A stretch of DNA of 24,000 nt from Minisyncoccota bacterium (GTDB taxonomy: Bacteria; Patescibacteriota; Minisyncoccia; Phycocordibacterales; UBA918): positions 8,851 through 32,850 of the forward strand of contig JAIPIB010000006.1 of assembly GCA_021734905.1 (NCBI GenBank), written 5' to 3'. Numbering within the stretch: the first letter of the stretch is position 1; each line of letters starts with the position of its first letter. Positions 116 to 17,375 of the stretch are shown in pieces. The translations under genes and the position numbers were made by a program. The notes beneath the pieces are model-generated. The model had not been told where the DNA came from, did no database searches, and saw only the letters and a program-made list of their open reading frames with translations.

Positions 116-1075
116 TTAGGCATTTTTCCCATTATTCTCTGCTTGTTGTTGTGCGTATTTCATTATACTTGCTTCGTAAAACTTTTTACTAATTCTCTTC
201 ATCTGGATTTTATTTCCGACAAACCAAAAGACAAAAGAAATAATTGCGTTTGATATCACAGCACCGAACTCCAAACTAACGAGATTTATGACACCGAGAA
301 TTAGAAAAATGAATGAAGCACCATACAAAAATCTTACCGCCCAATTACTTTTCTTTTGGTCGTCTATTTCGGCAAAAACTGCTAATTGTTCGTTGCTCAT
401 CTCATCAGGATTAAGACCGATTGATTTTACCCAAGTAGATGTATTTTTTGAAAGAATCGGTCGTTCTATAACTTTTTGTGTTTTGCCGAAAATTGCATTG
501 TAAGCGTCATCCATAGCTTTTTGCTTTTTTGTATGGCGTTTCATATAACCCTCAAAATCAAAACCTCGCCCGAAATCATCTTGTGGGTTTTCAAAAATCA
601 AAATGGAACTAGCAACATCTTTTATATCTTTTTCTTCTTTATTTCCTACACTCTTTTCAAAGATTGCATCCACTGTCATTTTGATTTTATGTTCGTCCCA
701 TCGTAGATTTGAAAAATAAATACGAGCAGTTTCTCTCAAAATCTCTTGATCGGATGTTTTCGGACGGAAAAGTTTTAATTGTTTGTAAATACCAAATATC
801 TTTTTCGCTTTTGCTTTTTCGCTTCCCATAAAATAACCAAATATCCATAGAACGGCGTAAATACCAAGAATCACCAAAACTATTGTTGGATTAACTTTCC
901 ATAAACTATAAAATCCACCAGCAAAAAGTATTAACCAAAGAAGATTTATAATGAGCACCGCAACAGTACTATTAAAAATCATTGGTCTTTCAAAAAAAGA
1001 TTTGCTTTGTGCGTTCGCACTCCATTGAAAAACAATGAAGCCAAGAACTGTTAAAATTATTCCGAGTATCAACAT
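116..1075 (-). CDS. hypothetical multi-pass membrane protein (N-terminal TM helices, ~150-aa charged soluble middle, C-terminal TM helices)
   Basis: 319-aa ORF with no competing long ORF. Clear hydrophobic segments at both ends. Tightly packed (3-nt gap) behind the 1079-1735 gene. No family recognised by eye. Confidence 0.6.
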   Translation of the reverse strand: MLILGIILTVLGFIVFQWSANAQSKSFFERPMIFNSTVAVLIINLLWLILFAGGFYSLWKVNPTIVLVILGIYAVLWIFGYFMGSEKAKAKKIFGIYKQLKLFRPKTSDQEILRETARIYFSNLRWDEHKIKMTVDAIFEKSVGNKEEKDIKDVASSILIFENPQDDFGRGFDFEGYMKRHTKKQKAMDDAYNAIFGKTQKVIERPILSKNTSTWVKSIGLNPDEMSNEQLAVFAEIDDQKKSNWAVRFLYGASFIFLILGVINLVSLEFGAVISNAIISFVFWFVGNKIQMKRISKKFYEASIMKYAQQQAENNGKNA

Positions 1076-1078
1076 AAT

Positions 1079-1735
1079 TTAATCATTAAAAGTGTTACCA
1101 GTGTCATAATGTGTGCTTTTTCCTCCCTCTGTTTTCCACCTGAACCAGTAACTATCACCATTATACATAGTCACATTTAGCCCGTTGCCATTCCATAAAA
1201 TACACAATAAGTCTTCGTGTTGCATAGCCGCACGGAGTATTCCGTCAACAGCTTTGCGATAAATCGTGCGTTGGGCATACCAAAGCAACGCAAGAGATAA
1301 AGTGAGTGCGGTGAGCCAACCTATCCCATTTATAAAACCCCACGCCAAACCGCCAAAAGTTAGCAAAATGAGTCCACTTCGTATTGGTCCAAGCATCATC
1401 GCTTGGCTTGGATGAAAAATAAAAAAACCAATTAACAGAAGTGGCAACGCCAAGAGCAAAAGCCAAGTTTTAGTTATCACAACATAAACAATCAAACCAA
1501 TGGGAACAATAAAAGTTAGAGAAGCCAAAAACAAAGCTTGAGCCCTTTGCCATTTGGAAGAATAAATACCATTTTGAATCCATTGAAGAGCAGCACTCCT
1601 ATCAACGCCGAGACTTGCAACTCCTTCCGATACTCGCTTTTTTAATTCATCAAAACTTGTGAACGGAAAATATTCCAGTTCTTCAACACGCTTTGGTTTT
1701 GGCTTTTGCTCTTTTTGTTCGTTATTATTTTCCAT
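1079..1735 (-). CDS. hypothetical membrane protein (charged N-terminus, ~4 TM helices, small C-terminal W/G/N-rich domain)
   Basis: 218-aa ORF beginning 2 nt after the stop of the XRE gene. Hydrophobic core region LFLASLTFIVPIGLIVYVV...LLLALPLLLIGFFIF. No family recognised. Confidence 0.6.
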   Translation of the reverse strand: MENNNEQKEQKPKPKRVEELEYFPFTSFDELKKRVSEGVASLGVDRSAALQWIQNGIYSSKWQRAQALFLASLTFIVPIGLIVYVVITKTWLLLLALPLLLIGFFIFHPSQAMMLGPIRSGLILLTFGGLAWGFINGIGWLTALTLSLALLWYAQRTIYRKAVDGILRAAMQHEDLLCILWNGNGLNVTMYNGDSYWFRWKTEGGKSTHYDTGNTFND

Positions 1736-1737
1736 AG

Positions 1738-1944
1738 TTATTTTATTAAATCATCAACGCTCACGCCAAAGGCTTTCGCAACCTTTTTAAGCGTGACTAA
1801 TGTTGGATTCTGGTTTTCACCAGATTCCATTTTAATAAGCGTGTTATTGGCGACATCTGCCAATCTCGCTAACTTCTCTTGCGAAAGCCCTTTGGCTTCT
1901 CGCAATTTCTTTATGTTGTTTGCTAAATTTTGGCTTGTTGACAT
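1738..1944 (-). CDS. XRE-family helix-turn-helix transcriptional regulator
   Basis: 68-aa protein. NIKKLREAKGLSQEKLARLADVANNTLIKMESGENQNPTLVTLKKVAKAFGVSVDDL is a textbook HTH_3/Cro-CI fold signature. Confidence 0.85.
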   Translation of the reverse strand: MSTSQNLANNIKKLREAKGLSQEKLARLADVANNTLIKMESGENQNPTLVTLKKVAKAFGVSVDDLIK

Positions 1945-1964
1945 ATAATCAATAAAAGATTAAC

Positions 1965-1970
1965 ATTATA
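1965..1970 (-). promoter_or_regulatory. possible -10 box for the XRE operon
   Basis: Perfect TATAAT on the minus strand about 20 nt upstream of the XRE ATG, with GTAACA 18 nt further upstream as a weak -35. Sequence match only. Confidence 0.25.
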
Positions 1971-2082
1971 GTGGAGTATCTATTAATCTGTTACTACTAT
2001 GATGTTACACCAAAATTTAAAACAAATCAATATGAGTGATTTTTTTGCGGTGGCGAATTTTCCGAAAACCCCCAGTCCGAAA

Positions 2083-2176
2083 CCCGCCCGCATTCCTCCC
2101 CAGACCCCTCCTGCGGGCGGGAAATCAGCCGAGGCAGGGCGAATCCATTCCCCCAGACAAATTGTTTCGCCCTGCC
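2083..2176. other. two tandem GC-clamped stem-loops with related C-rich loops (candidate structured RNA or protein-binding module)
   Basis: Stem-loop A: cccgcccgc (2083-2091) pairs with gcgggcggg (2113-2121), 21-nt loop. Stem-loop B: ggcagggcgaa (2133-2143) pairs with ttcgccctgcc (2166-2176), 22-nt loop. Both loops carry cattcc(t)ccccagac. The stems differ in sequence but keep perfect pairing. Confidence 0.45.
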
Positions 2177-2236
2177 GAGTCCGTTTTAATCATTTGGATT
2201 CTGCTCGAAATAGTTTCGAACTTTGTCCAGCAAACA

Positions 2237-2356
2237 CCGCCAAAATTCGGAATTCAAATTTCCGGCAAAAATATGGTCGGCGCGAAGCGCCATCTGTTCT
2301 GCATTCCCCCCACAAAATCCTGATTCTGCAAGGATTCGCCACGCTCCGCGTGGCTC
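2237..2356. repeat. left 120-bp inverted repeat (IR-L) flanking the serine recombinase gene
   Basis: The reverse complement of 2237-2356 equals 3758-3877 at 119/120 positions (single mismatch 2342 vs 3772), verified base by base. Identity stops abruptly at both ends. Confidence 0.95.
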
Positions 2357-2377
2357 GTCGTTTGCCAATACAAAAAT

Positions 2378-3910
2378 ATGAATAATCAAACCAAAAAGTT
2401 TTTCATATATACTCGCAAGTCTACGGACGACAAAGACAGACAAGTCCGCAGTATTGCTGACCAGTTGAGTGAGTTAAAAGAACTCGCCTTGAAAGAACAA
2501 CTAGAAGTGGTAGATGTCTTTGTCGAAAAGCAGACCGCCAAAATACCAGGTCGCCCTGTTTTTAACGAAATGATGTTGAGAATGGAAGCGGGCGAAGCGT
2601 CTGGTATTTTGGCGTGGCATCCCGATAGACTTGCTCGCAACTCGGTAGATGGAGGAAAGATTATCTACCTCGTTGATACTGGAGTAATTTCAGAAATGAA
2701 ATTCCCAACTTTTTGGTTTGATCCGACACCGCAAGGGAAATTCATGCTTTCAATCGCTTTTTCGCAATCCAAGTATTATGTGGACAATTTGTCGGAAAAT
2801 ATTAAGCGTGGTAAGCGAAATAAAGTGAAAGACGGAATATGGCCTCAAATGTCTCCACTCGGATATATAAACGAAGGTGGAAAAATTGTTGTTGATGAAA
2901 ATATTGCACCGTTAATCAAGAAAACATTTGAGACATATTCGTCTGGGTCTTTCACTTTGCGCCAACTCCGCGACAAATTTAACGAACTTGGATTGAAACG
3001 AAAAAGCGGAAAGGAACTTGCGGTGTCGAATTATCAAAAACTTCTCAAAAATCCTATTTACACTGGTCTAATGAGATATAACGGAGAGATTTTTGAGGGC
3101 AAGCACGAACCGATTATCACAAAGAAACTTTTTGATTCCGTTCAAGAAGTGATGATAAGGAAATCCAAACCTCACTCGAAAGGACTAAAACCATTTTTGT
3201 ATAGAGGATTTTTCCGTTGTGGAGAATGTGGGTGCTTCATTACCACAGAAACACAAAAAGGTCATAACTATTTGCGATGTACTAAACGGAAAAATCCTTG
3301 TACTCAAAAATATGTCCGTGAGGAGCTCATCACTTCTCAAATTCAAGAGGAAATCAAAAAAGTTTCTTTGCCTCTTGATTGGACGGAATGGATGATTGCC
3401 GAAAATGCAAAAGATCGGCAATCGGAAGTCCAATCGAGTACGCTTTTTGCGGATTCAACAAAAGCCGAGATTTCTCTTTTGGATTCCAAGATAGAGAAGC
3501 TGATGAGTGCCTATCTCGAAAGTGCGTTGTCACTTGAAGAATATCGCGAAGCTAAAAACAAGTTGGTCAATCAAAATCAGCTTCTCAAAGAGAAATTATC
3601 GGCTTTTGAGCAAAAAGCGAATAATCGGTTCGAACTTACAGAAAAGTTTTTGAAATACAATATGGAATTGGCAAACGACCGAACAAATGAGGAAAATACT
3701 CATTTGTTCAAAAAAGTCGGTTCGAACTTTCAAATTAAGGATCGAACCGTACTTTTTGAGCCACGCGGAGCATGGCGAATCCTTGCAGAATCAGGATTTT
3801 GTGGGGGGAATGCAGAACAGATGGCGCTTCGCGCCGACCATATTTTTGCCGGAAATTTGAATTCCGAATTTTGGCGGAGAGTGAGGGATTCGAACCCTCG
3901 GTCCCTTTAA
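2378..3910 (+). CDS. large serine recombinase (resolvase catalytic domain + recombinase domain + zinc ribbon + coiled coil)
   Basis: N-terminus FIYTRKSTDDKDRQVRSIADQ with the catalytic Ser and ...HPDRLARN. Zinc ribbon at FFRCGECGCF...YLRCTKRKNPC. Long heptad-like segment EISLLDSKIEKLMSAYLE...LLKEKL. The last ~40 codons are encoded by IR-R, and the final 11 codons run antisense into tRNA-Ser, so the true C-terminus is uncertain. Confidence 0.9.
   Translation: MNNQTKKFFIYTRKSTDDKDRQVRSIADQLSELKELALKEQLEVVDVFVEKQTAKIPGRPVFNEMMLRMEAGEASGILAWHPDRLARNSVDGGKIIYLVDTGVISEMKFPTFWFDPTPQGKFMLSIAFSQSKYYVDNLSENIKRGKRNKVKDGIWPQMSPLGYINEGGKIVVDENIAPLIKKTFETYSSGSFTLRQLRDKFNELGLKRKSGKELAVSNYQKLLKNPIYTGLMRYNGEIFEGKHEPIITKKLFDSVQEVMIRKSKPHSKGLKPFLYRGFFRCGECGCFITTETQKGHNYLRCTKRKNPCTQKYVREELITSQIQEEIKKVSLPLDWTEWMIAENAKDRQSEVQSSTLFADSTKAEISLLDSKIEKLMSAYLESALSLEEYREAKNKLVNQNQLLKEKLSAFEQKANNRFELTEKFLKYNMELANDRTNEENTHLFKKVGSNFQIKDRTVLFEPRGAWRILAESGFCGGNAEQMALRADHIFAGNLNSEFWRRVRDSNPRSL
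3758..3877. repeat. right 120-bp inverted repeat (IR-R)
   Basis: Reverse complement of IR-L (119/120). It overlaps the 3' end of the recombinase ORF. Its outer 6 nt (3872-3877) overlap the CCGCCA 3' terminus of tRNA-Ser. Confidence 0.95.
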
Positions 3911-3961
3911 GAGGACACCTCGTTAGCAGTGAGGCGCTTTCGACCACTCAGCCAACTCTCC
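3872..3961 (-). tRNA. tRNA-Ser (anticodon GCU), 90 nt, CCA encoded
   Basis: The minus strand reads GGAGAGT TG GCT GAGTGGTCGAA AGC G CCTCA CTGCTAA CGAGG TGTCCTCTTAAAGGGACC GAGGG TTCGAAT CCCTC ACTCTCC G CCA. It has a 7-bp acceptor stem, a long variable arm, a GTTCGAATC T-loop and a CU-GCU-AA anticodon loop. Its layout parallels E. coli tRNA-Ser(GCU). Confidence 0.9.
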
Positions 3962-3979
3962 ATTATTTAATTTTGTGGT

Positions 3980-4006
3980 GGCGGACGAAAGTACCTTTCG
4001 TCCGCC
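3980..4006. other. perfect 12-bp GC-rich stem-loop between tRNA-Ser and comF
   Basis: ggcggacgaaag (3980-3991) pairs with ctttcgtccgcc (3995-4006) around a 3-nt loop. There is no adjacent U-run on either strand, so it is not a canonical intrinsic terminator. Confidence 0.4.
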
Positions 4007-4111
4007 TATTGCCTCATAAATATCGACAATCCTGCTCACACTTGTTCGCAGACCAGATGAAAAGTGAAACAGTTCATTTTTTGTCCACTCAGTTACGTCT
4101 CCTGTATTCTA

Positions 4112-4168
4112 TTGCTCGCAATTGGACACGGATGTGTTCAATTGCGAGCAAGGATACCATATTTTTTT
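4112..4168. terminator. long stem-loop downstream of comF, possible bidirectional terminator
   Basis: ttgctcgcaattg (4112-4124) pairs with caattgcgagcaa (4139-4151), with extra acac/gtgt pairing in the loop. A T7 run lies at 4162-4168 on the plus strand, equivalent to an A-run preceding the hairpin on the minus strand. The geometry is imperfect for either strand. Confidence 0.3.
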
Positions 4169-4186
4169 AGGACTCGCATGCAGGAA

Positions 4187-4846
4187 TTAGTGTGCAAAAG
4201 CCACACAGGTTATTGAGGCAGGGGAGTGCGGCAAAAGCGAAGCTTTTGCCGCACTGAGCGTTGCTCCTGTGGTCACAACATCATCAACAAGAAGAATGTG
4301 TGCTCCAGTTACTTTTGAAGGTGAAGTCACGACAAACGCTTTCTCAAGATTCGTGAGACGTTTATCTCGAGGAAGATCTGTTTGTGGTTTTGTATTACGA
4401 GTCCGCTTTAGGATTCCTGTTTCAATTTCAACTTTTTTAGAAAGATTGCGGGCAAGGAGTACTTTATGGACTTGATTGTATCCTCGTGACCTCATTCGTG
4501 CATTTGAAAGTGGTATTGGAATTATGTAATCAAATGAACAAGTATTTTGTTTTAGGTACATATTAAAAAGAACATTGAGTAGAAGCCAAGCACGTGCGTT
4601 TGCGTGAAATTTTCCCTCATGAATAAGTGCGCGTACTTCTTTGGATTTGTAGTCACTGAGTGTATGCGTTGATTTTTTGCTCTGCAGATGATAAAGCAGT
4701 CGCACTTGTTTTGGAGTCATGTTTCGCACACAAAGGTTGTCTTCATCTGGCGGAAAAATAATATCAAAGATTCGTCTTAAAATATCAAACATGGTATCTA
4801 TGAATATAGTATCATTTGATGATAGAATACTTTGTAAATTGCACAT
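4187..4846 (-). CDS. comF: ComF-family protein (phosphoribosyltransferase-like competence protein)
   Basis: C-terminal PRTase motif HILLVDDVVTTGATLSAAKASL and an N-terminal IFDIIFPP...C region, as in ComFC/GntX. The real start is probably Met19 (ATG 4792-4790). The upstream 54 nt contain the likely pilM promoter, and the longest ORF abuts the pilM ATG. Confidence 0.8.
   Translation of the reverse strand: MCNLQSILSSNDTIFIDTMFDILRRIFDIIFPPDEDNLCVRNMTPKQVRLLYHLQSKKSTHTLSDYKSKEVRALIHEGKFHANARAWLLLNVLFNMYLKQNTCSFDYIIPIPLSNARMRSRGYNQVHKVLLARNLSKKVEIETGILKRTRNTKPQTDLPRDKRLTNLEKAFVVTSPSKVTGAHILLVDDVVTTGATLSAAKASLLPHSPASITCVAFAH
4820..4828 (+). promoter_or_regulatory. possible extended -10 promoter for pilM operon
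   Basis: TGATAGAAT (TGn + TAGAAT) lies 19 nt upstream of the pilM ATG in the comF/pilM divergent gap. Motif match only. Confidence 0.3.
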
Positions 4847-5944
4847 ATGGGATTTGATCTTTCATCATTGACGTCATTCTTAAAGACAAGCGTTGCGACT
4901 CCATCAAAAGATGATGCTGTTATTGGTATTGATATTGGATCGTCCACGATAAAGATTGTCCAACTAAAAAATGCAAAAGGAGTTCCAACGGTTGAGACCT
5001 ATGGTGAACTTCAATTAGGACCCTATGAAGGAGTTGATATTGGGCGAGCGACACATCTTCCCTCTAATAAACTAACTGAAGCGCTTATCGATATCTTGAG
5101 AGAGGCTGGGGCAAAAGGAAAGTTAGTTGCTTTTGCACTCTCGTACAACTCTAGTTTCTCTACAATAATCTCTATCCCTTCACTCGACCAAAAAAAGATT
5201 GGTGCTATTGTCCCCGTTGAGGCACGAAAATATATACCAATTTCTCTCACAAAAGTAACACTTGATTGGATGCCTCTTGAAGTTTCAAAGGAAGACAAGG
5301 TAACAAATGTTCTTATTACGGCGATATACAACGAAGCGTATTCACGTTATGAGTCCATTATGCTAGGTGGCAGTCTAGAGACGGTCGCGAGCGAGATTGA
5401 AACTTTTAGTTCAATTCGATCACTAGTTTCTCCTCAAGATGAGTGTGTTGCAATCATTGATTGGGGGGCGTCCTCTACTCGATTGTATATTATTGAAAAA
5501 GGTGTCGCCAGAAAAACACACAGTGTTCTCATGTCTGGATCTGAGTTAACGGGAATTCTTGAAAAGGAGCTCAAAATCGAATTTAAAGATGCAGAAGAAC
5601 TCAAACGATCTGTAGGGCTACGAGGGAAGGAAGAAGATCCTCGGATTGAAAAAGCAATTGCACGTTCTCTTGAGCGTGGGTTGCGTGAGTTACATACCGT
5701 TGTGGTGCGGTATGAAGAAACTGGTGGCGCTCCAGTACAGAAAGTAATTATGAGTGGAGGAGGAGCCCTTCTTCAGGGAGTAATGCCATACGTTTCAGAC
5801 ATGTTCTCGAAGCCAGTTGTTGTTGCTGACCCATTTCAAAAAGTTGCATATCCAGCGTTTCTTGAAGACACACTGAAGGAAGCTGGACCACCATTTGCGG
5901 TTGCTGTTGGTATCGCGCTTCGAGCATTTCAAACAATTCAGTAA
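4847..5944 (+). CDS. pilM: type IV pilus assembly protein PilM (actin-like ATPase fold)
   Basis: 365 aa. VIGIDIGSSTIKIVQLK phosphate-1 motif, later IIDWGASSTRLYII and MSGGGALLQG motifs typical of PilM/FtsA-like proteins. First gene of the pilus operon. Confidence 0.9.
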   Translation: MGFDLSSLTSFLKTSVATPSKDDAVIGIDIGSSTIKIVQLKNAKGVPTVETYGELQLGPYEGVDIGRATHLPSNKLTEALIDILREAGAKGKLVAFALSYNSSFSTIISIPSLDQKKIGAIVPVEARKYIPISLTKVTLDWMPLEVSKEDKVTNVLITAIYNEAYSRYESIMLGGSLETVASEIETFSSIRSLVSPQDECVAIIDWGASSTRLYIIEKGVARKTHSVLMSGSELTGILEKELKIEFKDAEELKRSVGLRGKEEDPRIEKAIARSLERGLRELHTVVVRYEETGGAPVQKVIMSGGGALLQGVMPYVSDMFSKPVVVADPFQKVAYPAFLEDTLKEAGPPFAVAVGIALRAFQTIQ

Positions 5945-6001
5945 CAGATGTCCACAGAAGTATTGTTTATGTGATGCATAAAGCGACGTATACTAGTTGT
6001 G

Positions 6002-6727
6002 ATGACATATATACCTCGTTCTCCACTCGGTTTTAAAGATACGTCTGGTGCAGTTCCTGCTCATGTGAAGAAGAAGCACACTTTTCGTATTTTTAATTTT
6101 ATTGCAGGCACACTTATTACCGTGTCTTTTGCAAGTGCAGTTGGGGTGTTTCTGTATACGTCACATGCGCAGACACAACTTGAAATGGCGAAATCAAATT
6201 TGCAAAAGGAAAGCATGAATGACAGCACGAAGAGTATTGAGGAAATTAGTCTTTTTGATCACAAGCTTAATGTGGCCCAGTATTTGCTTGATAATCATAT
6301 TGCACCATCGCTCCTATTTAGTGAGCTTGAAGGATCAACAAAGGAATCTGTTCAATATGATCAATTTAAATTTACTTATGATCCTGGATTCGATGCTGTC
6401 TTGACGCTTACGGGAAGCACACGAGATTTTTCTTCAGTAGCACTCCAGAAAATGCAGTTTAAAAGAGCGGGTGTTTTTCGAGAGTTTGTCGTAAAGGATA
6501 TTTCCGTTAAGAATGAAACTGGAGATGTAATTAATGGGATAGACCCTGATGCAGCAAAGCGAGCTGTTAGTTTTGGCATTACAGGATTGTTTGACACAAA
6601 ATATCTTGCGTACACAGGAGAGAGAATTTTCGTAAATGAAAAGCCGCAGGAGGAAGTTGTCGAAACCTCTCCTCTTGATTTGGAGCTACAGGGCACAGCG
6701 TCTACAAGTAATGAAGTGACTCAGTAA
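6002..6727 (+). CDS. PilN-like bitopic membrane protein (assignment by position and topology)
   Basis: Single N-terminal TM helix (FIAGTLITVSFASAVGVFLY) followed by a soluble domain. It lies immediately after pilM, as pilN usually does. GTG 5999 or ATG 6002 could be the start. Sequence similarity was not verifiable by eye. Confidence 0.55.
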   Translation: MTYIPRSPLGFKDTSGAVPAHVKKKHTFRIFNFIAGTLITVSFASAVGVFLYTSHAQTQLEMAKSNLQKESMNDSTKSIEEISLFDHKLNVAQYLLDNHIAPSLLFSELEGSTKESVQYDQFKFTYDPGFDAVLTLTGSTRDFSSVALQKMQFKRAGVFREFVVKDISVKNETGDVINGIDPDAAKRAVSFGITGLFDTKYLAYTGERIFVNEKPQEEVVETSPLDLELQGTASTSNEVTQ

Positions 6728-6728
6728 T

Positions 6729-7304
6729 ATGTCTCGAACACTTACACCATTTTTATCGATTATCATTGCAATACTGTTGTTCTTGTTCTTCACTCAACCG
6801 AATTATGAGGAGGTTAAGAATCTTCAGAAAGAGACCGAAGAATATGTATCAGCAACTGAGAAGTACAACAATTTTAATACACGAATTGAAGAATTACTCA
6901 CAAGGAAAGATTCTATAAAGGAGTCTCAGAAAAAAATGTTGGATCTCCTTGTTCCTAAAAGTATTGATGATACTAGAACACTTGTTGATTTGAAGGTACT
7001 TGCAGAGAAAAATGGCCTTTTGTTTGGGAATGTTTCTATTGAGGGTGGTGACATACAGTTACAGGCAAAATCCACGTCTGGTAATAAAGCCAAGGTCAGT
7101 ACCACTGGAAGCAAGGAGCTTGTTACTTCAGATATTTCCTTTGAGGTTATTGGATTTTATCCACAATTCAAAGACTTCCTTCGTGATATAGAAAGTAGCT
7201 TAACTATTATGGAAGTAGTCGATATAACCTTTACTTCAAACGAGAGTCGCTTTCAGCAATTTTCAGTGAAGATCAGAACGTATGCGCTACCGCAGGGTAA
7301 ATAA
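6729..7304 (+). CDS. PilO-like bitopic membrane protein
   Basis: N-terminal TM helix (LTPFLSIIIAILLFLFF), then a coiled-coil-like region (NYEEVKNLQKETEEYVSATEKYNNFNTRIEELL) and a small alpha/beta C-terminal domain. The ATG lies 1 nt after the previous stop. This is the classic PilO layout and position. Confidence 0.55.
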   Translation: MSRTLTPFLSIIIAILLFLFFTQPNYEEVKNLQKETEEYVSATEKYNNFNTRIEELLTRKDSIKESQKKMLDLLVPKSIDDTRTLVDLKVLAEKNGLLFGNVSIEGGDIQLQAKSTSGNKAKVSTTGSKELVTSDISFEVIGFYPQFKDFLRDIESSLTIMEVVDITFTSNESRFQQFSVKIRTYALPQGK

Positions 7305-7315
7305 TTTAAGTATTT

Positions 7316-7618
7316 ATGTCACCAACATTTAAAAAATTGATCGCAGCATTATGTGTCATTGTCCTGTTAGGGGGAGTTTATGTTTATGTTTCTAGCAGAA
7401 ATTCAGATAGCGAGATGGTCTTATCTTCAGGTGAATTTTTAAGTCCCGAGGCAGCACAGCGCACAGAAGAAGTTTTGAGAAATATACAGGAGATTGACGG
7501 TTATAAGTTGGACGACACGCTCTTCCTGGATAGACGTTTTACGTCACTTGTTGATACGAGAATTGAGCTTATAGACATACGGACTGGGAGATACGACCCA
7601 TTTGTACCAGTTAATTAA
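7316..7618 (+). CDS. small membrane-anchored protein of the pilus operon (unknown role)
   Basis: 100-aa ORF with an N-terminal anchor helix (LIAALCVIVLLGGVYVYV), tightly spaced between the PilO-like gene and pilB. Confidence 0.5.
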   Translation: MSPTFKKLIAALCVIVLLGGVYVYVSSRNSDSEMVLSSGEFLSPEAAQRTEEVLRNIQEIDGYKLDDTLFLDRRFTSLVDTRIELIDIRTGRYDPFVPVN

Positions 7619-7630
7619 GGTATATAGATT

Positions 7631-9445
7631 TTGCGTGTTATGAATCTTCTCGCGCTCCTTGCGGAAAAAAATGTAATTGACGCAGCACAGCGTGAGCGTG
7701 TGGAGGCGCTTGCTGTCGAATCAGGTATTTCTTATGAACGAGCTCTCCTTGATGGAGGTGTCGACCCAGACAGTATTCGCGATGCAATTGGCGCATATTT
7801 CGATCTTCCGACAAGAGCAATTTCCGAACGCGATACAATCAAGTCCTCTGCCCTTAAGTATCTTTCAGAGGAATCCGCACGTCACTATAAAATTCTCCCC
7901 ATTGAACTTGAGGACGGGATACTTATTGTTGGACTTACTGATCCTGATGATCTTTCTTTCCGCGATGCACTTAATTTTATAACAGCAAAAGATCAAATTC
8001 CGTACAAATTGGTTGTTATATTAGAGCGAGATTTTGAATACGGCGTAAAATCATACGAAAACATAACTGGCGAAGTTGATGAGGCACTTGGTGTTCTTGA
8101 GTCTGAACTTGAGGAGGAAAGCGAAGGTGTTCCAGAAGAGAAAAAAAAGATAGAGGTTATTAAGGAAGACGCACCGGTAACAAAAATTGTTGCAACTATA
8201 CTCAGGTATGCAGTTGATGGTTCTGCATCTGATATTCACATCGAACCTTCTGCAAAAAAAACCAATGTCCGGTTTCGTGTAGATGGAACACTTGTGCATA
8301 GTCTCGAACTCCCAGAAAAAATTCATCAAGCTGTAGTTGCCCGAATTAAAATTCTTTCATCATTGAGACTTGATGAGAAGCGTAAACCACAAGATGGTCG
8401 TTTCTCAGCATCTATTGATGGAAGACAGATTGATTTTCGTGTCTCGATTTTACCAACGAATCATGGTGAAAAAGTGGTGATGCGTATTTTGGATACAGAG
8501 GCAGGAATTCGTACGCTCGAGGATACCGGTGTGTCTGCACATAATATTGCGCTTATTCGAAAGGCTTTAGCACAGCCGTTTGGCATTATTCTTATTTCGG
8601 GACCTACTGGTTCAGGTAAGTCGACTACACTGTACGGTATGCTCTCTGAGGTTGATAGAATAGGAAAGAATGTTATTTCACTCGAAGATCCAGTTGAGTA
8701 TAGTATTGATGGTGTCAGCCAATCACAAGTTAGGCCAGAAATTGGGTATACTTTTGCGAATGGTCTTCGGACGGCACTCAGACAAGACCCCGACGTCATC
8801 ATGGTTGGAGAAATTCGTGATAAAGAGACAGCGCAACTTGCTATTCAAGCAGCACTTACGGGACATCTCGTACTCTCAACCATTCACACAAATAATTCTG
8901 TAGGTGTGATTCCGCGACTTATTGATATGGGCGTTGATCCATATCTTATTGCTCCAACACTTGAACTTGCACTCGCACAGAGACTCGTCCGCCGCATTTG
9001 CCCTAATTCTGGTAAAAAAGTACCTGTTGCAGGAAGTATTAAGGCGCTCATCGATAGTGAATTCGAAGATCTTCCTGAGCGTTTTAGAAAGATAATTCCT
9101 CAAAGTGATCACGTGTTATTTGTTGAGGCTACTGAAGAGTGTTCAAGTGGAACTAAGGGACGAGTTGCAGTTATGGAGGCAATTACGATTGATGAAGAGA
9201 TTGAACGGCTCATCTTGGATGATGCAGACGAAGAAAAAATTCTTGCTGTTGCACGAAAAAATGGATTTATAAGTATGAAGGAGGATGCCATTATTAAAGC
9301 GCTAGACCACATCATTCCTTTTGAGGAAATAAGTACTCTTGGTGGCGCCATGCTTGTTTCTGATGAGGCGGAGAAAGAGGCTGTTGAAATTAAAGACGTT
9401 GATCTCGCACCATCTGTCGATAACCAAGTATCATCTAATGTATAA
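7631..9445 (+). CDS. pilB: type IV pilus extension ATPase PilB (GspE family)
   Basis: N-terminal T2SSE_N-like domain. Walker A GPTGSGKST, Asp box, Walker B DPDVIMVGEIRD and His box LTGHLVLSTIHTN. TTG 7631 or ATG 7640 could be the start. Confidence 0.9.
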   Translation: MRVMNLLALLAEKNVIDAAQRERVEALAVESGISYERALLDGGVDPDSIRDAIGAYFDLPTRAISERDTIKSSALKYLSEESARHYKILPIELEDGILIVGLTDPDDLSFRDALNFITAKDQIPYKLVVILERDFEYGVKSYENITGEVDEALGVLESELEEESEGVPEEKKKIEVIKEDAPVTKIVATILRYAVDGSASDIHIEPSAKKTNVRFRVDGTLVHSLELPEKIHQAVVARIKILSSLRLDEKRKPQDGRFSASIDGRQIDFRVSILPTNHGEKVVMRILDTEAGIRTLEDTGVSAHNIALIRKALAQPFGIILISGPTGSGKSTTLYGMLSEVDRIGKNVISLEDPVEYSIDGVSQSQVRPEIGYTFANGLRTALRQDPDVIMVGEIRDKETAQLAIQAALTGHLVLSTIHTNNSVGVIPRLIDMGVDPYLIAPTLELALAQRLVRRICPNSGKKVPVAGSIKALIDSEFEDLPERFRKIIPQSDHVLFVEATEECSSGTKGRVAVMEAITIDEEIERLILDDADEEKILAVARKNGFISMKEDAIIKALDHIIPFEEISTLGGAMLVSDEAEKEAVEIKDVDLAPSVDNQVSSNV

Positions 9446-9462
9446 CAGCGTATAATATAAAT

Positions 9463-9831
9463 ATGAAAATATTACTTGTCGACGACGATGCATTTCTTCG
9501 AGATATGTATGCAACAAAATTCAGGGAACTTAAACACACTATCAATGTTGCTGAAACAGCAGAAAGTGCTTTAGTAAAACTTCAGGCAGATACCTATGAT
9601 GCTGTTCTCTTAGACATGATAATGCCAGGAATGACCGGAGTTGATTTATTGAAACAGATTCAGAAAGAAAAAATTGGCGGCAATCCAAAGTTTATTATGC
9701 TCACGAACCAAAGTGAAGAGTCTGATAGAGAAGCCGCGCTTGCTGCAGGCGCTGCGGGGTATATTGTCAAAGCAGAGCTTATCCCGAGTGAGGTAGTCGC
9801 AGAAGTACTTAAACTTGTTTCAAAAAAATAG
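9463..9831 (+). CDS. stand-alone response-regulator receiver protein (CheY/PilH-like)
   Basis: 122 aa. MKILLVDDD acidic pocket, phospho-acceptor context LLDMIMPGMTG, and later LTN...K. No output domain. Confidence 0.9.
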   Translation: MKILLVDDDAFLRDMYATKFRELKHTINVAETAESALVKLQADTYDAVLLDMIMPGMTGVDLLKQIQKEKIGGNPKFIMLTNQSEESDREAALAAGAAGYIVKAELIPSEVVAEVLKLVSKK

Positions 9832-9832
9832 C

Positions 9833-10903
9833 ATGTCAACAGTTGATTACAAAAGAGAACTTGAAGACCTTATTGATATCGTTGCGACAGAGAAGGGCTC
9901 CGATATTCATTTGTCTGTGGGAGGACATCCTGTTATTCGTGTTGACGGTTCGCTCATTCATCTTGAGAAAAAGCCGATACTCACAAACGCAGATGTCGAG
10001 GGTTTTATGCACGTTCTTTTGACCAAAGAACAAGAAGAAAAATTTATTGAAACAAGAGAAATCGATTTTTCATATGCAGCGAAAGACGGGGTTCGTTTTC
10101 GCGGGAATGGTTTCTTTCAAAAAGGTGCTATATCTGTCGCACTTCGGCATATTTCAAAAGAGATTAAGAATTTTGATGAGTTAGCACTTCCTGCAGTTCT
10201 TGAATCATTCACACAGCGACCGCAGGGATTTTTTCTCTGCGTTGGTCCGGTAGGTCAAGGAAAATCAACAACACTTGCTGCAATGATTGAACTCATCAAT
10301 CAGACACGGGCGGAACATATCATGACCATCGAAGACCCAATTGAGTATATTTTTGAACCCAAAAAATCCCTTATTGATCAACGTGAGGTTCGTGTCGATA
10401 CCGCTGATTTTCATACAGGCCTACACTCTGCATTTCGTCAGGACGTTGATGTGATTATGGTTGGAGAGATGCGTGGAAGAGACACTATTTCAACAGCGGT
10501 AACTGCAGCAGAGACAGGGCATCTTGTCTTATCGACACTCCATACAAATGACGCCGCACAAACAATTGATCGTATTATTGATACATTTCCTGCAAGTCAG
10601 CAAGATCAGATCCGCGTCCAGCTCTCCGGCTCACTCACTGCCATTTTTTCTCAACGTCTCATACCGAGAATTTCAGGAGGTCTTGTTCCAGCTTTTGAGC
10701 TCCTCATTAATAATACTGCAGTATCAAACTTAATCCGGGAGCGACGGACTCATGAGATTCAAACAGTCATCGAGACGGGAATGGATATTGGTATGATTGA
10801 TATGAATCGTACACTCGTTGAGTTAGTACAACAGGGGGAAATAACTGTTGAGAATGCTTTTGCATACTCAACTAATCCAAAGGGGCTTGAACGTTTAATG
10901 TAA
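9833..10903 (+). CDS. pilT: type IV pilus retraction ATPase PilT
   Basis: Walker A GPVGQGKST, Walker B DVDVIMVGEMRG, His box ETGHLVLSTLHTN and PilT-type AIFSQRL region. ATG 9833 lies 1 nt after the receiver gene stop; the longer ORF from TTG 9815 overlaps that gene. Confidence 0.9.
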   Translation: MSTVDYKRELEDLIDIVATEKGSDIHLSVGGHPVIRVDGSLIHLEKKPILTNADVEGFMHVLLTKEQEEKFIETREIDFSYAAKDGVRFRGNGFFQKGAISVALRHISKEIKNFDELALPAVLESFTQRPQGFFLCVGPVGQGKSTTLAAMIELINQTRAEHIMTIEDPIEYIFEPKKSLIDQREVRVDTADFHTGLHSAFRQDVDVIMVGEMRGRDTISTAVTAAETGHLVLSTLHTNDAAQTIDRIIDTFPASQQDQIRVQLSGSLTAIFSQRLIPRISGGLVPAFELLINNTAVSNLIRERRTHEIQTVIETGMDIGMIDMNRTLVELVQQGEITVENAFAYSTNPKGLERLM

Positions 10904-10912
10904 TTTAATTCT

Positions 10913-12124
10913 ATGTTGTTTTCATATAAAGCAGTCGATAAAGCAGGAGCTCCTCGAGAGGGAACCGTTGACGCGCAAAATATAGAGTCGGCGATTGAGA
11001 CAGTCGAAACTCGTGGCTATACCATTGTTTCTCTTGACCCAATCAACAAAGCGAAGAATTCCTTTTTGGATGTTGAAATTACGTGGTTTGATCGTGTCTC
11101 AAATAAGGACGTTGTGATTCTGTCGCGACAAATCGCAACACTTTTTGAAGCGCAGGTATCGGCGCTCCGTATCTTCCGCCTCCTTGGTACAGAAATTGAA
11201 AACCCGAAGCTGCAGCAAATTTTAAATGATGTGAGCAACGACCTTCAGGGAGGAAGTTCAATATCACGTGCGCTCGCACGGCATCCGGATGTTTTTTCTG
11301 AATTTTATGTGAGTATGGTCAAAGCTGGTGAAGAATCAGGGACACTCGAAAAGACGTTCATGTATCTTGCAGATTATCTTGACCGTATGTACCAAGTGGT
11401 TTCAAAGGCAAGAAATGCACTTATCTACCCAGCATTTGTCATCTCGATATTTATTGGTGTGATGATGCTCATGCTCACACTCGTTATTCCAAATATTAGT
11501 GCAATACTTCTCGATTCTGGGCAAGAAATCCCTGTCTACACAAAGATCGTCATCGGACTTTCAAGCTTCCTGACAAATTATATTGGACTCATTCTCGTAT
11601 TTATCACGCTTATGGGAGTTGTGTATTGGCAGTTTCAAAAAACCGAAGCCGGCAAGCGAACGGTTGATGAATTTAAGCTCGCAATCCCTTTTATTGGTTC
11701 GCTGTACCAAAAACTTTTCCTAACGCGTATCTGTGACAACCTTGCAACAATGCTTACGAGTGGTATCTCGATGGTTCAGGCACTTGAGGTTACTGCAGAA
11801 GTTGTCGACAACCGAGTCTATAAGGAAATAATTGAGAGTACCCTTATTAATGTGAAAGGTGGACGATCTTTTGCAGATTCAATTGCTGAGTATCCTGAAA
11901 TTCCTGGAGTGCTTGCGCAGATGAGTAAGGTGGGTGAAGAAACAGGGAAGCTCGGTGACATTCTCAGCACGCTCGCTGTTTTCTATCAGCGTGAAGTTAA
12001 TAATGCTGTAGACACACTCATCAGCCTCATTGAGCCAGCAATGATAGTGCTTCTTGGACTTGGAGTCGGAGTGCTTTTGGCATCTGTACTCATTCCTATC
12101 TACAATATTACGGGGGCTATCTAG
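10913..12124 (+). CDS. pilC: type IV pilus platform protein PilC (GspF family)
   Basis: 403 aa with two repeated T2SSF-like halves (...LSRQIATLFEAQVSALRIF... and ...ICDNLATMLTSGISMVQAL...) and three or more TM helices. Follows pilT. Confidence 0.9.
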   Translation: MLFSYKAVDKAGAPREGTVDAQNIESAIETVETRGYTIVSLDPINKAKNSFLDVEITWFDRVSNKDVVILSRQIATLFEAQVSALRIFRLLGTEIENPKLQQILNDVSNDLQGGSSISRALARHPDVFSEFYVSMVKAGEESGTLEKTFMYLADYLDRMYQVVSKARNALIYPAFVISIFIGVMMLMLTLVIPNISAILLDSGQEIPVYTKIVIGLSSFLTNYIGLILVFITLMGVVYWQFQKTEAGKRTVDEFKLAIPFIGSLYQKLFLTRICDNLATMLTSGISMVQALEVTAEVVDNRVYKEIIESTLINVKGGRSFADSIAEYPEIPGVLAQMSKVGEETGKLGDILSTLAVFYQREVNNAVDTLISLIEPAMIVLLGLGVGVLLASVLIPIYNITGAI

Positions 12125-12221
12125 GACTTTTTTAAGCAAAATTACTTAGTGTAGGTCTTGGATTTGTTTACTTTCATAGAGCTTTGTCCACAGGCAGTGC
12201 TCTAAATGCTCTCAAACACAG

Positions 12222-12227
12222 TATAAT
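12222..12227 (+). promoter_or_regulatory. possible -10 box for pilin gene 1
   Basis: Perfect TATAAT 50 nt upstream of the pilin ATG (12277). No convincing -35 was found. Confidence 0.25.
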
Positions 12228-12276
12228 AGTTTGTAACCACACTACGTGGAGTAATATATTACTTATTAAATTAAAT

Positions 12277-12732
12277 ATGATGAAAAATACATACAAACGA
12301 GGTTTTACACTCATCGAACTCCTCGTAGTGATCGCTATTATTGGTATCTTGGCTTCAGTGGTTCTTGCATCACTTAACACAGCTCGAGATAAGGGAGCAG
12401 ACGCTGCTGTGAAGGGGGCGCTTTCACAAATGAGAGCACAAGCAGAATTGTTTTACGATACAGGTAGAACATATGATACTATGTGTGGAGATCCCCAAGT
12501 TGATAGTATTCTTGGGAACGCTGCCTCAAATTCAGTTGCTGGAGCAACAGTTGTTTCTGTAGATGGTACAGCAGGAACTGCAACAACAGTGATTTGCCAC
12601 GATTCCCCTACTGCTTACGCAGCCGCAGCACCACTTAAAGGAACCTCTGGTTCATATTACTGTGTAGATTCTACTGGAGTCACAATGGTTACTGGAACGG
12701 CTTTGGTCGCTTCGGGAACTGTCTGTCAGTAG
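12277..12732 (+). CDS. type IV (major-type) pilin, paralog 1
   Basis: MMKNTYKRG|FTLIELLVVIAIIGILASVVLASL is a class III signal peptide with Gly-Phe cleavage/methylation site and Glu5. C-terminal Cys pair (YYCVDS...GTVCQ). The 12184 ORF extension upstream is non-pilin-like. A strong terminator follows. Confidence 0.9.
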   Translation: MMKNTYKRGFTLIELLVVIAIIGILASVVLASLNTARDKGADAAVKGALSQMRAQAELFYDTGRTYDTMCGDPQVDSILGNAASNSVAGATVVSVDGTAGTATTVICHDSPTAYAAAAPLKGTSGSYYCVDSTGVTMVTGTALVASGTVCQ

Positions 12733-12740
12733 TCTTTTAT

Positions 12741-12778
12741 AAACAAAAAACACCCTTTAAAAAGGGTGTTTTTTGTTT
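12741..12778 (+). terminator. rho-independent terminator after pilin 1
   Basis: aaacaaaaaacaccctt-taaaa-agggtgttttttgttt forms a long perfect hairpin whose 3' arm runs into a T tract. It is symmetric, so potentially bidirectional. Confidence 0.8.
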
Positions 12779-12805
12779 ATAAGTCACGTAAGTTTCATAA
12801 TAGTT

Positions 12806-12814
12806 TGGTATACT
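12806..12814 (+). promoter_or_regulatory. possible extended -10 promoter for pilin gene 2
   Basis: TGGTATACT (TGn + TATACT) lies 36 nt upstream of ATG 12850, downstream of the pilin-1 terminator. Confidence 0.3.
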
Positions 12815-12849
12815 GAAAATATTAGTATAGTTTTGTTTTTTGACCTGTA

Positions 12850-13326
12850 ATGAATTATTCTAAACTTAAAAATGGCTTTACACTCCTAGAGCTTCTTGTA
12901 GTAATTACAATCATAAGTATTGTCGCTGTAATTACTGTCGTTTATATTGGCGAATCTAAGGATAAAGGAGCTGATGCGGGTGTTAAATCAAATATAATTA
13001 ACGCGCGCTCACTAGCCGAAGTGTATTATACGAACAACAATAAGACATACGAAGGTGTTTGTGGAGTAGTCGGAGCTGACATGATCGGACACACTATACA
13101 AAAAGCAAAAGAAGCGTATGGCGGAAATGCAAAAAATTCCTACACGGACTCAGTTGCAAGTACCTGGAATACAGAAGAATGTCACGATTCACCAGACGGA
13201 TACGCTGTGTGGGTTCCTGTAAGGGCTTCAACAAACGCAAATCCAAGAGGGTTCTGTATAGATGGTAATAATGTGACAGACATAGCAACGAGTATTCTTA
13301 ATGTGAATGACACAGTTTGTCCGTAG
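12850..13326 (+). CDS. type IV pilin, paralog 2
   Basis: MNYSKLKNG|FTLLELLVVITIISIV prepilin motif, KDKGADAGVKSNI block shared with the other paralogs, C-terminal Cys pair (FCIDG...DTVCP). Confidence 0.9.
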   Translation: MNYSKLKNGFTLLELLVVITIISIVAVITVVYIGESKDKGADAGVKSNIINARSLAEVYYTNNNKTYEGVCGVVGADMIGHTIQKAKEAYGGNAKNSYTDSVASTWNTEECHDSPDGYAVWVPVRASTNANPRGFCIDGNNVTDIATSILNVNDTVCP

Positions 13327-13367
13327 GTTTACTTGAGGTTAGTAACGTATAGTCGCATCAATTTTCA

Positions 13368-13808
13368 ATGAAGAATACATACAAACGAGGTTTCACACTC
13401 ATCGAACTCCTTGTCGTGATTGCAATTATTGGTGCATTAACATCAATAGTTCTTCCGTCACTTAATGCAGCTCGTGACAAAGGCATTGATGCGGCGGTAA
13501 AAAGTAACCTTAGTGGAATACGAGATCAGATGGCGATTTTCCGAGATAATACTGGGAATGCATATACTGGAGGATGTGCAGACCCAAATATTACCAACAC
13601 AATGGCAGTAGCTACGAGTACAGTAGCACCAACTCAAACAATAGGTGGTTTCGGTGATGGAGAATGTATCGCAACAGCAACGGAGTGGTCGGCTTGGGTT
13701 AATCTCAAAGCATCTTCGACCACTGCGTGGTGTGTCGACGCACAAGGGAATTCTAGCGTGATAGCAGCACAAAACAGTAGTACGGCAAATCTAACTGTTT
13801 GTCCATAG
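13368..13808 (+). CDS. type IV pilin, paralog 3
   Basis: MKNTYKRG|FTLIELLVVIAIIGAL. The first ~66 nt are nearly identical to pilin 1. C-terminal Cys pair (WCVDAQG...NLTVCP). The last 66 nt belong to unit 1 of the 132-bp tandem repeat. Confidence 0.9.
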   Translation: MKNTYKRGFTLIELLVVIAIIGALTSIVLPSLNAARDKGIDAAVKSNLSGIRDQMAIFRDNTGNAYTGGCADPNITNTMAVATSTVAPTQTIGGFGDGECIATATEWSAWVNLKASSTTAWCVDAQGNSSVIAAQNSSTANLTVCP

Positions 13809-13843
13809 ATAAGACTACGCCCGTTATTCCATTGCTATTCTCC

Positions 13844-13874
13844 ATGTTGACCAAGGCAAGGCCTCGGTCAACAT
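13844..13874 (+). repeat. REP-like palindromic element, copy 1
   Basis: atgttgaccaaggc-aag-gcctcggtcaacat is an imperfect 14-bp-arm hairpin with one A/C mismatch, located 36 nt after the pilin 3 stop. Confidence 0.8.
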
Positions 13875-13940
13875 CAAGGGAACTCAGGTGAAATAGCTGC
13901 GCAAAACAGTAGTGTCGTTGACCTAACTGTTTGTCCGTAA
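13875..13940 (+). pseudogene. orphan pilin 3' fragment (promoterless, start-less C-terminal cassette)
   Basis: It is open in the pilin frame and encodes QGNSGEIAAQNSSVVDLTVCP*, versus QGNSSVIAAQNSSTANLTVCP* at the end of pilin 3. It has no start codon and no N-terminal pilin part. Confidence 0.7.
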
Positions 13941-13975
13941 ACAAGTCTACATCCGTTATTCCATTGCTATTCTCC

Positions 13976-14006
13976 ATGTTGACCAAGGCAAGGCCTCGGT
14001 CAACAT
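13976..14006 (+). repeat. REP-like palindromic element, copy 2
   Basis: Identical to copy 1. It ends 15 nt before the RAYT ATG. Confidence 0.8.
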
Positions 14007-14021
14007 GTTATAATTTTTATT

Positions 14022-14681: not shown

Positions 14682-14703
14682 CCGAGGCCTTGCCTCGGTC
14701 AAG
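14677..14703 (-). repeat. REP-like palindromic element, copy 3 (inverted orientation)
   Basis: cttgaccgaggc-ctt-gcctcggtcaag. Its core ttgaccgaggccttgcctcggtcaa is the reverse complement of the copy 1/2 core with 1 mismatch (here the hairpin is perfect). It overlaps the RAYT stop codon (14679-14681). Confidence 0.8.
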
Positions 14704-14733
14704 TTCGGGTGTGGGGTTTTATACTTGTTTTGT

Positions 14734-16794: not shown

Positions 16795-16804
16795 CATTAT
16801 TTTT

Positions 16805-17371: not shown

Positions 17372-17375
17372 TATT

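Follow-up and report, generated by a model that had tools for sequence, protein, structure and literature searches.

The stretch of DNA under study, 24,000 nucleotides of a Minisyncoccota bacterium (assembly GCA_021734905.1, contig JAIPIB010000006.1, positions 8,851 to 32,850; hereafter the window), probably carries the tRNA-proximal end of an integrated genomic island, with a large serine recombinase (LSR) whose attachment site, attP, would lie in the 3' end of the LSR gene itself and would be accompanied by an inverted spare copy upstream, a reading to which a probability of about 0.7 is assigned. The initial annotation of the window had described a near-perfect 120-bp inverted repeat, whose arms are here called IR-L and IR-R, around the LSR gene and docked on the 3' end of a tRNA-Ser gene, and both the repeat and the docking are borne out by the comparison of related loci. 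The island would belong to a family of elements of 4-5.5 kb, each comprising an XRE-family regulator gene, one to three cargo genes and the LSR gene, and would itself measure ~4.3 kb. In the scanned 50.8-kb contig, JAIPIZ010000005.1 from a Candidatus Pacebacteria metagenome-assembled genome (MAG), window position 1 corresponds to contig position 417.

The proposed integration involves a segment immediately outside IR-L, designated LR, which occurs again in reversed orientation at the far end of related islands. Before integration, a circle would contain, in order, reversed LR, cargo, LR joined to IR-L, the LSR gene and IR-R, and would enter the chromosome by a single attP x attB event. The attP site would correspond to the junction of IR-R with reversed LR, ...GAATTTTGGCGG/TGTTTGCTGGACAAAGTTCG (here and below a slash marks the junction), inside the LSR gene and 16-19 codons ahead of its native stop, and attB to the junction of tRNA-Ser, ...CTCTCCGC, with its terminator, the crossover falling in GCGG (plus strand) at the tip of the tRNA-Ser gene. 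IR-R, the integrase-side P arm, would then be joined to the tRNA as part of attR, while the other arm, reversed LR with the native tail codons and the 3' untranslated region (UTR), would pass to the far end of the island, beside the displaced tRNA terminator, in attL. LR together with IR-L (2050-2356) would be a second, uncut and inverted copy of attP upstream of the LSR gene, so placed that, in a circle produced by excision, both attP copies, here ~307 bp each, would form inverted repeats parting an integrase segment from a cargo segment. The sharp outer edge of the 120-bp repeat would thus be the crossover point, because integration splits attP there, and the repeat would appear as 120 bp because only the inner 120 bp of the spare attP keep a partner after integration; the model would likewise account for the end of the repeat exactly at the tRNA, for the coding nature of IR-R and for the lack of a stop of its own in the open reading frame (ORF).

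The recombinase gene, its repeat and the tRNA-Ser junction

Homologues of the LSR were collected at E<=1e-10 (7603 proteins, with details taken from the best 120 clusters at 90% identity clustering), and 160 related loci were retrieved from GTDB species-representative genomes and JGI/ENA metagenomes. With the window's own locus and two context loci these give 163 classified loci, and the comparison of arms uses the 110 loci in which both arms are complete. All orientation counts derive from consensus assemblies, in which rare subpopulations would be missed.

The LSR comprises (i) a catalytic Resolvase domain (PF00239, 2.3e-18, residues 9-154) with the serine nucleophile, and (ii) C-terminal Recombinase (PF07508, 1.4e-15) and Zn_ribbon_recom (PF13408, 2e-08) domains, residues 168-409 aligning with the C-terminal domain of A118 Int. 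Its relation to characterised LSRs is distant, SprA/YokA and A118 Int matching at E ~1e-5 (PDB), and the protein scores far under the cut-offs of the NCBIfam CcrB and XisF models and reaches 20.6 bits against the IS607 family model NF033518, whose cut-off is 110. The opinion of the initial annotation that the unit fits neither Hin/Gin-type switches nor IS607 elements is upheld by the size of the LSR (510 residues), the length of the arms and the sub-cut-off NF033518 score. Among the best 120 clusters, homologues are 84-93% identical over their full length and named sources include Pacebacteria, Minisyncoccia, Shapirobacteria, Liptonbacteria and the Patescibacteria group; lengths in these clusters range from 498 to 647 residues because the ORF reads out into variable flanks.

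Both the sequence itself and a repeat search place IR-L and IR-R as reverse complements at 119 of 120 positions, 1401 nt apart; the search also reports arms of 131 nt at 95%, a weak spill into the flanks. The lone mismatch (2342/3772) is a synonymous GCA/GCG alanine codon within the ORF, at a position where the family consensus is G (arm alignment column 15). The same geometry recurs in 110 independent loci with complete arms, which excludes a chance origin and shows that the arrangement is no isolated case. That the contig was joined chimerically, or folded back on itself, at 2237 or 3877 might have been suspected from the MAG origin of the contig and from the position of the island 2.6 kb from its end, but such an assembly artefact is refuted, and its likelihood is negligible, given that the 110 loci were assembled independently in different projects and with different assemblers.

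The arms are identical in 65 of the 110 loci and differ at no more than two positions in 86, although between arms of different loci the median difference is 26 of 120 positions and the divergence reaches 40%. In ~15 loci the two arms are different alleles, so that the pattern is bimodal, arms being either identical or of different alleles. The outer 64 nt occur as a few very different alleles, with the reading frame open in every one, and the inner end of each arm carries an invariant 6-bp palindrome, CCACGC-NNN-GCGTGG. Within the arm, a GC hairpin (Table 1) shows compensatory changes at 4 of 8 pairs among 113 distinct arms, with a covariation of 0.204 compared with 0.042 after shuffling, a value that none of 500 shuffles reached. 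This hairpin may substitute for the terminator that the tRNA would lose on integration and may shield the tRNA from LSR transcription.

At the window, the CCGCCA terminus of the tRNA-Ser gene overlaps the outer 6 nt of IR-R, and in 111 of the 163 classified loci a tRNA-Ser gene on the minus strand has its 3' end just beyond IR-R, which establishes the tRNA-Ser specificity of the family. The occupied genes of relatives have the anticodons GCU, UGA, GGA, CGA and ACU. The repeat ends in GCGG every time, corresponding to C71-C72-G73-C74 on the tRNA strand and defining a 4-nt core (CCGC/GCGG). About 23 unoccupied tRNA-Ser genes in the same loci end in ...CCGC and continue into variable sequence, usually with a terminator hairpin.

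Several further observations concern this junction. Most repeat alleles supply CCGCCA, and with it an encoded CCA for the docked tRNA (2240-2254 and 3860-3874; alignment columns 113-120), and several unoccupied tRNA-Ser genes of the same genomes continue after CCGC with something other than CA. Two sets of loci (L113, L151, L152 and L091; L123, L139, L048 and L040) show other flanks beside the GCGG core, one type beginning TGTATTCTTAAAATAGCTCGAAC... and a further type ...CTCGAGTTAAGTACCC..., and these flanks suggest that more kinds of LR, or targets of another sort, exist. One genome carries the element twice in three cases: L089 and L093 on one 73-kb contig, where they occupy different tRNA-Ser genes (ACU and GGA), L082 and L136 on one 257-kb contig, and L031 and L052 in one MAG.

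The relation between the LSR gene and the core is unusual in that the coding sequence runs across it. The initial annotation had IR-R encode the last ~40 codons of the gene; the 40 codons hold for the portion before the core, but the ORF has no stop within IR-R and continues for a final 10 codons and stop that are tRNA antisense. In every locus the reading frame passes through the core without a stop. Upstream, the minus strand of LR encodes a spare C-terminal tail in frame with the peptide of IR-L (Table 1), present in most loci with the consensus C[LV]L[DN][KE]VR[NM]YF..NP.. followed by a stop. Among 49 distinct versions of this tail, variation is highest at third codon positions, and synonymous changes exceed nonsynonymous ones in the frame of IR-L (2633 and 2191) but not in frame +1 (1147 and 2745) or frame +2 (602 and 4436). 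Full-length database homologues terminate in such a tail, namely P0044 (...EFWRCLLDKVRNYFEQNPND), P0008, P0047, P0054 and P0063, and IR-R joined to reversed LR therefore exists in nature. As read from these sequences, IR-R followed by reversed LR is an intact LSR gene with its predicted native C-terminus, and the open ORF, the codon periodicity of the tail and the native-tail proteins together put the recombination site inside the coding sequence of the integrase.

The far end of the island and the proposed spare attP copy

LR is conserved among loci up to the edge of IR-L, reading ...GAAATAnnTTCGAACTTyGTyCAAyAnACA/CCGC; it extends over ~190-330 bp, is GC-rich and hairpin-rich, and occurs in at least four sequence variants. 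In the window its GC-rich hairpins lie at 2083-2121 and ~2130-2177, and the fold of 2036-2380 gives z = -4.3, while the tRNA was the sole match in an Rfam scan of 1500-4300, with no RNA family on LR. Two other interpretations of this segment were rejected. A degenerate tRNA 3' half, to which the TTCGAA motif might point, has the wrong spacing between T arm and acceptor and receives no ARAGORN or Rfam call, and is rejected also because the coding tail and P' arm account for the conservation of LR. The ORF at 1999-2385 (128 residues, annotated as a gene in the MAG) lies wholly on LR and IR-L, has no family match and is probably not a gene.

In the 18 loci with enough flank, a far-left copy of LR lies reversed 1.9-3.8 kb to the left of IR-L, and the near and far copies of one island are 97-100% identical; the 4-kb left flanks were compared by BLAST on both strands, global MAFFT alignment being uninformative because the cargos differ. 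The far-left junction reads ...GCGG/TGTTTGTTGGAC (also given as ...GCGG/TGTTTGTTGGACAAAGTTCGAAAC) and is preceded by unrelated, variable sequence. At the far-left junctions of L017, L025, L051 and L057 the outside sequence contains terminator-like hairpins, as after unoccupied tRNA-Ser genes, and these four relatives thereby display the layout of a tRNA island, with an intact tRNA at one end and the displaced native 3' flank at the other. GCGG is common to the far-left junction of terminator and reversed LR, to the junction of IR-R and tRNA, and to that of LR and IR-L, which is compatible with attP x attB recombination.

The predicted attP junction is itself found intact. Reversed LR stands on the C-terminal side of the LSR in 6 of the 163 classified loci, and one of these arrangements, L084, runs from the LSR gene through IR-R and reversed LR into the start of the cargo, colinear with the far-left LR-cargo junction of L066 (94.8% over 750 bp). 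The two loci are thus related by circular permutation, a relation that a tandem array or an excised circle would produce and that supports the model directly.

These junctions bear on the proposal, made in the initial annotation, of a compact element bounded by terminal inverted repeats (TIRs). Its target, a tRNA-Ser 3' end with CCGC(CA) supplied by the element, is retained; its unit is wrong, because in at least 75 loci the flank of IR-L is conserved LR, followed by cargo and by far-left reversed LR. That the 1.64-kb cassette of IR-L, LSR gene and IR-R is nevertheless a mobile TIR-bounded transposon at CCGC-type ends, with LR and cargo as its target or as a separate element, is improbable. 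The cassette stays constant while LR and cargo vary, both repeat ends are competent junctions, and L002, L003, L079 and, probably, L067 have a plus-strand tRNA-Ser gene abutting the CCGC end of IR-L, which leaves the cassette between two convergent tRNA-Ser genes with neither LR nor cargo. A single insertion at one site, however, could not produce left LR together with right tRNA (at least 75 loci); a transposon of this kind should have unrelated flanks and a target-site duplication, whereas in most copies LR is conserved on the left, tRNA-Ser forms the right flank every time and nothing is duplicated beyond the shared core; both LR copies of an island are near-identical; and the junction of displaced terminator with reversed LR, like the permutation of L084 and L066, fits the integration of a whole island.

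Read as products of such islands, the loci L002, L003 and L079 indicate that the spare attP is intact, recombination-competent and used with tRNA-Ser genes, and the tRNA-cassette-tRNA arrangement implies element-mediated recombination between different tRNA-Ser loci, possibly with chromosomal inversions. The same loci qualify the suggestion of a gene-converted inverted duplication in the initial annotation: the pattern of the arms fits gene conversion, but the duplicate is an intact attP and not a scar. It is accordingly unlikely that upstream LR and IR-L are a functionless relic of an ancient inverted duplication, kept identical by gene conversion alone. The bimodal arms, the lack of a demonstrated function for the spare copy and the known LSR mechanism, which needs no second attP, would all agree with a relic; a full-length copy with intact core and open tail frame persists, however, in more than 100 loci despite up to 40% divergence between the arms of different loci, the site is used in recombination with tRNA-Ser genes, and the copy, with the promoter-like region on one side and the LSR start on the other, would form at least a portion of the mRNA leader.

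Inversions do occur in the family, in the segment next to the LSR. Of 74 loci, 7 have the cargo segment, with its promoter-like region, in inverted orientation with respect to the LSR; L017 and L031 share 2.7 kb of cargo and LR copies at 98.6% identity in opposite orientation, and L107 is inverted relative to L066 and L084. Such an inversion shifts the promoter-like region away from the LSR. The initial annotation had envisaged instead a self-inverting segment at 2357-3757, which finds no support in that form, none of more than 100 loci having a flipped LSR segment; the inverted cargo is the neighbouring segment. An in-place switch, in which the LSR or homologous recombination flips 2357-3757, alternates the LSR end between the tRNA side and the native tail and redirects transcription, is unlikely: a near-perfect 120-bp inverted repeat does surround the gene, the conserved in-frame alternative C-terminus in LR could be joined in place by inversion only, and inversions across the neighbouring LR repeats occur, but the tRNA lies on the C-terminal side in 111 of the 163 classified loci while none shows the mirror arrangement (tRNA beside the N-terminal end and reversed LR beside the C-terminal end), and the attP of a circle, or of a tandem array, accounts for the native-tail junction without inversion in place.

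Within the island reading, the LSR is the presumed catalyst of these events, and loss of the native tail on integration would be expected to alter its activity. The spare attP may act as a second site of integration, as an operator or leader in autoregulation, or as a substrate of flip-flop inversion. A more ambitious and rather doubtful extension regards the two inverted attP copies as a built-in control device and the excised element as an amphimeric circle whose geometry recalls the 2-micron plasmid. Flip-flop between the repeats would then connect and disconnect the integrase and its promoter; integration through the downstream attP would clip the native C-terminus and lock the element in place; and the upstream spare attP, retaining intact tail and site, could re-arm the element, recombine with other tRNA-Ser genes or drive chromosomal inversions. 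If this extension were true, the island would give the first example, among serine-integrase elements, of an architecture that is self-limiting and invertible, and would be a major vehicle of gene flow among bacteria of the Candidate Phyla Radiation (CPR), perhaps via natural transformation, a route considered because the element is without transfer genes.

Several points weigh against the integration of an island as proposed here. The source contig does have a far-left LR copy, but in rearranged form, within its first 200 nt and outside the window. Excision, a circle and an empty site are predictions for the source population, and neither a recombination directionality factor nor a replication gene was identified. 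The predicted native-tail form of the window's own LSR has no exact match in a collection of 15 billion proteins, and the conservation of the tail could partly reflect constraint on a DNA site, the P' half-site, instead of coding. The six intact junctions of IR-R and LR could be tandem arrays instead of free circles, and L082 sits on a 257-kb chromosomal contig. Finally, if both attP copies are equivalent, the total absence of the mirror integration product is unexplained.

Two observations on the source population stand beside these points. Positions 1-200 of the source contig (L001), to the left of the window, contain the far-left LR truncated at its core-proximal end and preceded by a tRNA-Ser 3' fragment, TTCGAATCCCTCACTCTC, in orientation opposite to the resident tRNA-Ser, which looks like what a previous rearrangement would leave behind. 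Contigs 100% identical to the source occur in SRR12088351 (Logan assembly), and in the Logan assembly of this population (L166) the cargo forms a separate unitig with inverted LR sequence at its end, which favours the island reading. When an empty site or alternative junctions were sought via identical host and cargo proteins, the other assemblies proved to break inside tRNA-Ser or the LR repeats, breaks that are informative on repeat structure and not on excision.

Cargo, distribution and neighbourhood

The features of the island within the window are collected in Table 1. Two predicted membrane proteins and the XRE-family regulator make up the cargo side, and a DUF6804 gene that straddles the window start is also part of the cargo in the source contig. 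An identical copy of the 218-residue protein is found in 5 other samples on short contigs, and the one whose ends were checked, L166, stops inside LR repeats. Relatives carry between their LR copies an XRE gene and one to three variable genes, the XRE gene having the window's position and orientation in 67 of the 74 related loci that carry one; their cargo includes membrane proteins and DNA-methyltransferase-, ATPase-, D-Ala-D-Ala-ligase- and nucleotidyltransferase-like proteins, as judged from N-terminal sequences only. No replication or transfer genes were seen between the LR copies of islands. By consensus scan, candidate plus-strand promoters, TTGACA-17-TAACAT (1938-1966) and TTGCTA-18-TATAAT, face LR, IR-L and the LSR gene, a minus-strand candidate, GTAACA-18-TATAAT, faces the XRE gene, and relatives have a near-consensus TTGACT-N17-TATAAT at the same place; these elements are promoter-like and their function is presumed from the consensus.

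Table 1. Features of the island end and its tRNA target, in window coordinates
Feature	Position	Strand	Evidence or predicted role
Predicted membrane protein, 319 residues (cargo)	116..1075	-	No Pfam/NCBIfam family; between both LR copies in the source contig
Predicted membrane protein, 218 residues (cargo)	1079..1735	-	ORF
XRE-family helix-turn-helix regulator, 68 residues	1738..1944	-	Pfam HTH_3, 7.6e-17; divergent from LSR
Divergent promoter-like region	1920..1994		Consensus scan
LR	2050..2236	+	Putative inverted spare copy of LSR gene 3' end and 3' UTR; P' arm equivalent
Spare C-terminal tail, CLLDKVRNYFEQNPND and stop	2186..2236 (TAA 2186-2188)	-	In frame with IR-L peptide
IR-L	2237..2356	+	Putative P arm of intact, inverted attP copy; CCGC core 2237-2240
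LSR ORF, 510 residues	2378..3910	+	Pfam domains; YTRKS motif, residues 11-15
IR-R	3758..3877	+	Putative P arm of split attP, now in attR; GCGG core 3874-3877
GC hairpin, GGCGC-TTC-GCGCC	3823..3835 (mirrored 2279-2291 in IR-L)		Terminator-like score in both directions
tRNA-Ser(GCU)	3872..3961	-	Predicted integration target, B' arm of attR; ARAGORN, Rfam tRNA 58.7 bits

The element family is widespread in CPR/Patescibacteria, with at least 293 matched stretches in GTDB species-representative genomes and more than 557 in metagenomes, and between class-level lineages its integrases share 80-94% identity, a similarity that implies recent spread by horizontal transfer. A scan of IMG/VR with a native-tail homologue returned no relatives and no link to catalogued viruses. 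Mobile elements of CPR/Patescibacteria are poorly characterised, and the family offers (i) a natural marker of gene flow in CPR bacteria, (ii) a serine integrase whose compact target, the 3' tip that any tRNA-Ser gene offers, is universally available, and (iii) a mechanistic question on serine-integrase control, posed by an attP in the integrase ORF and a second inverted attP upstream. Frequent breaks of CPR assemblies beside tRNA-Ser genes are attributed to this element family.

To the right of the tRNA-Ser gene, the window continues directly with a ComF-like phosphoribosyltransferase gene (4187-4846, minus strand), followed at 4847-17963 by a long type IV pilus/competence-type cluster that includes a PilM-like protein, two T2SSE ATPases, a response regulator, T2SSF and several N_methyl pilins, with a prepilin peptidase gene at 14725-15561. 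Should transformation spread the island, this cluster may be relevant. Within it, the pilin genes and the gene for prepilin peptidase enclose an ORF that weakly matches IS200-like Y1 transposases (14022-14681; Pfam Y1_Tnp, 1e-6), and elsewhere in the window a tRNA-Met(CAT) gene at 22742-22813 (plus strand) has no element adjoining it.

Comparison with known systems

Neither this family nor any LSR element that has a second, inverted attP was found described in the literature consulted, whose coverage is incomplete and gives no proof of novelty. In geometry alone, the window resembles the Hin/Gin/Cin/Pin systems, where a serine recombinase gene is bracketed by inverted repeats. Hin/Gin-type recombinases comprise ~190 residues with a C-terminal helix-turn-helix and act on 26-bp sites, both orientations coexisting in the population, whereas the window displays a 510-residue LSR, arms of at least 120 bp and no flipped LSR segment in more than 100 assemblies. 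The IS607 family and Tn4451/Tn5397 (TnpX/TndX) are similar to the island as regards a serine recombinase that moves a small element via a circular intermediate, Tn4451 and Tn5397 using LSRs; they are without long TIRs and are not specific for tRNA-Ser.

The yeast 2-micron plasmid (FLP/FRT) is comparable to the proposed circle, again in geometry only, with two long inverted repeats that contain recombinase sites and two unique segments in both relative orientations. FLP is a eukaryotic tyrosine recombinase and the 2-micron plasmid replicates; the island, on the other hand, has no replication gene that could be seen, its isomers are skewed 67:7, and attP x attP inversion by the LSR is putative.

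Elements of SSV-type archaeal viruses and plasmids integrate into tRNA genes. Their integrases have, like the LSR of the window, attP within the integrase ORF, a likeness of analogy and not of membership: the SSV-type enzyme is an archaeal tyrosine recombinase, whereas only serine-recombinase domains were found in the bacterial element of the window, and the island would detach merely the last 16-19 codons and keep a spare copy upstream. A recombination site within the ORF is the hallmark of these 'suicidal' integrases (PMC7253208, PMC8371274), and integration disrupts their own gene (PMC7253208). Islander-type islands of tyrosine integrases are described as inserted at tRNA 3' ends, with the gene restored by the element and the displaced flank at the other end (PMC4383910). 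As in the island of the window, the integrase adjoins the intact tRNA; the differences are the serine integrase and a repeated block of GCGG (4-6 nt) in place of a tRNA fragment of 15-50 nt.

The large serine integrases of phages and of integrative conjugative elements (A118/LI Int, SPbeta SprA/YokA, phiC31, Bxb1, CcrAB and XisF) share with the LSR the order of Resolvase, Recombinase and zinc-ribbon domains, and share with the island short hybrid junctions with few bases in common and an integrase gene beside one junction. Compared to these systems, the island targets the 3' tip of tRNA-Ser genes, spans only 4-5.5 kb, and would have its attP within the ORF of the integrase and, upstream of that gene, a second attP in inverted orientation.

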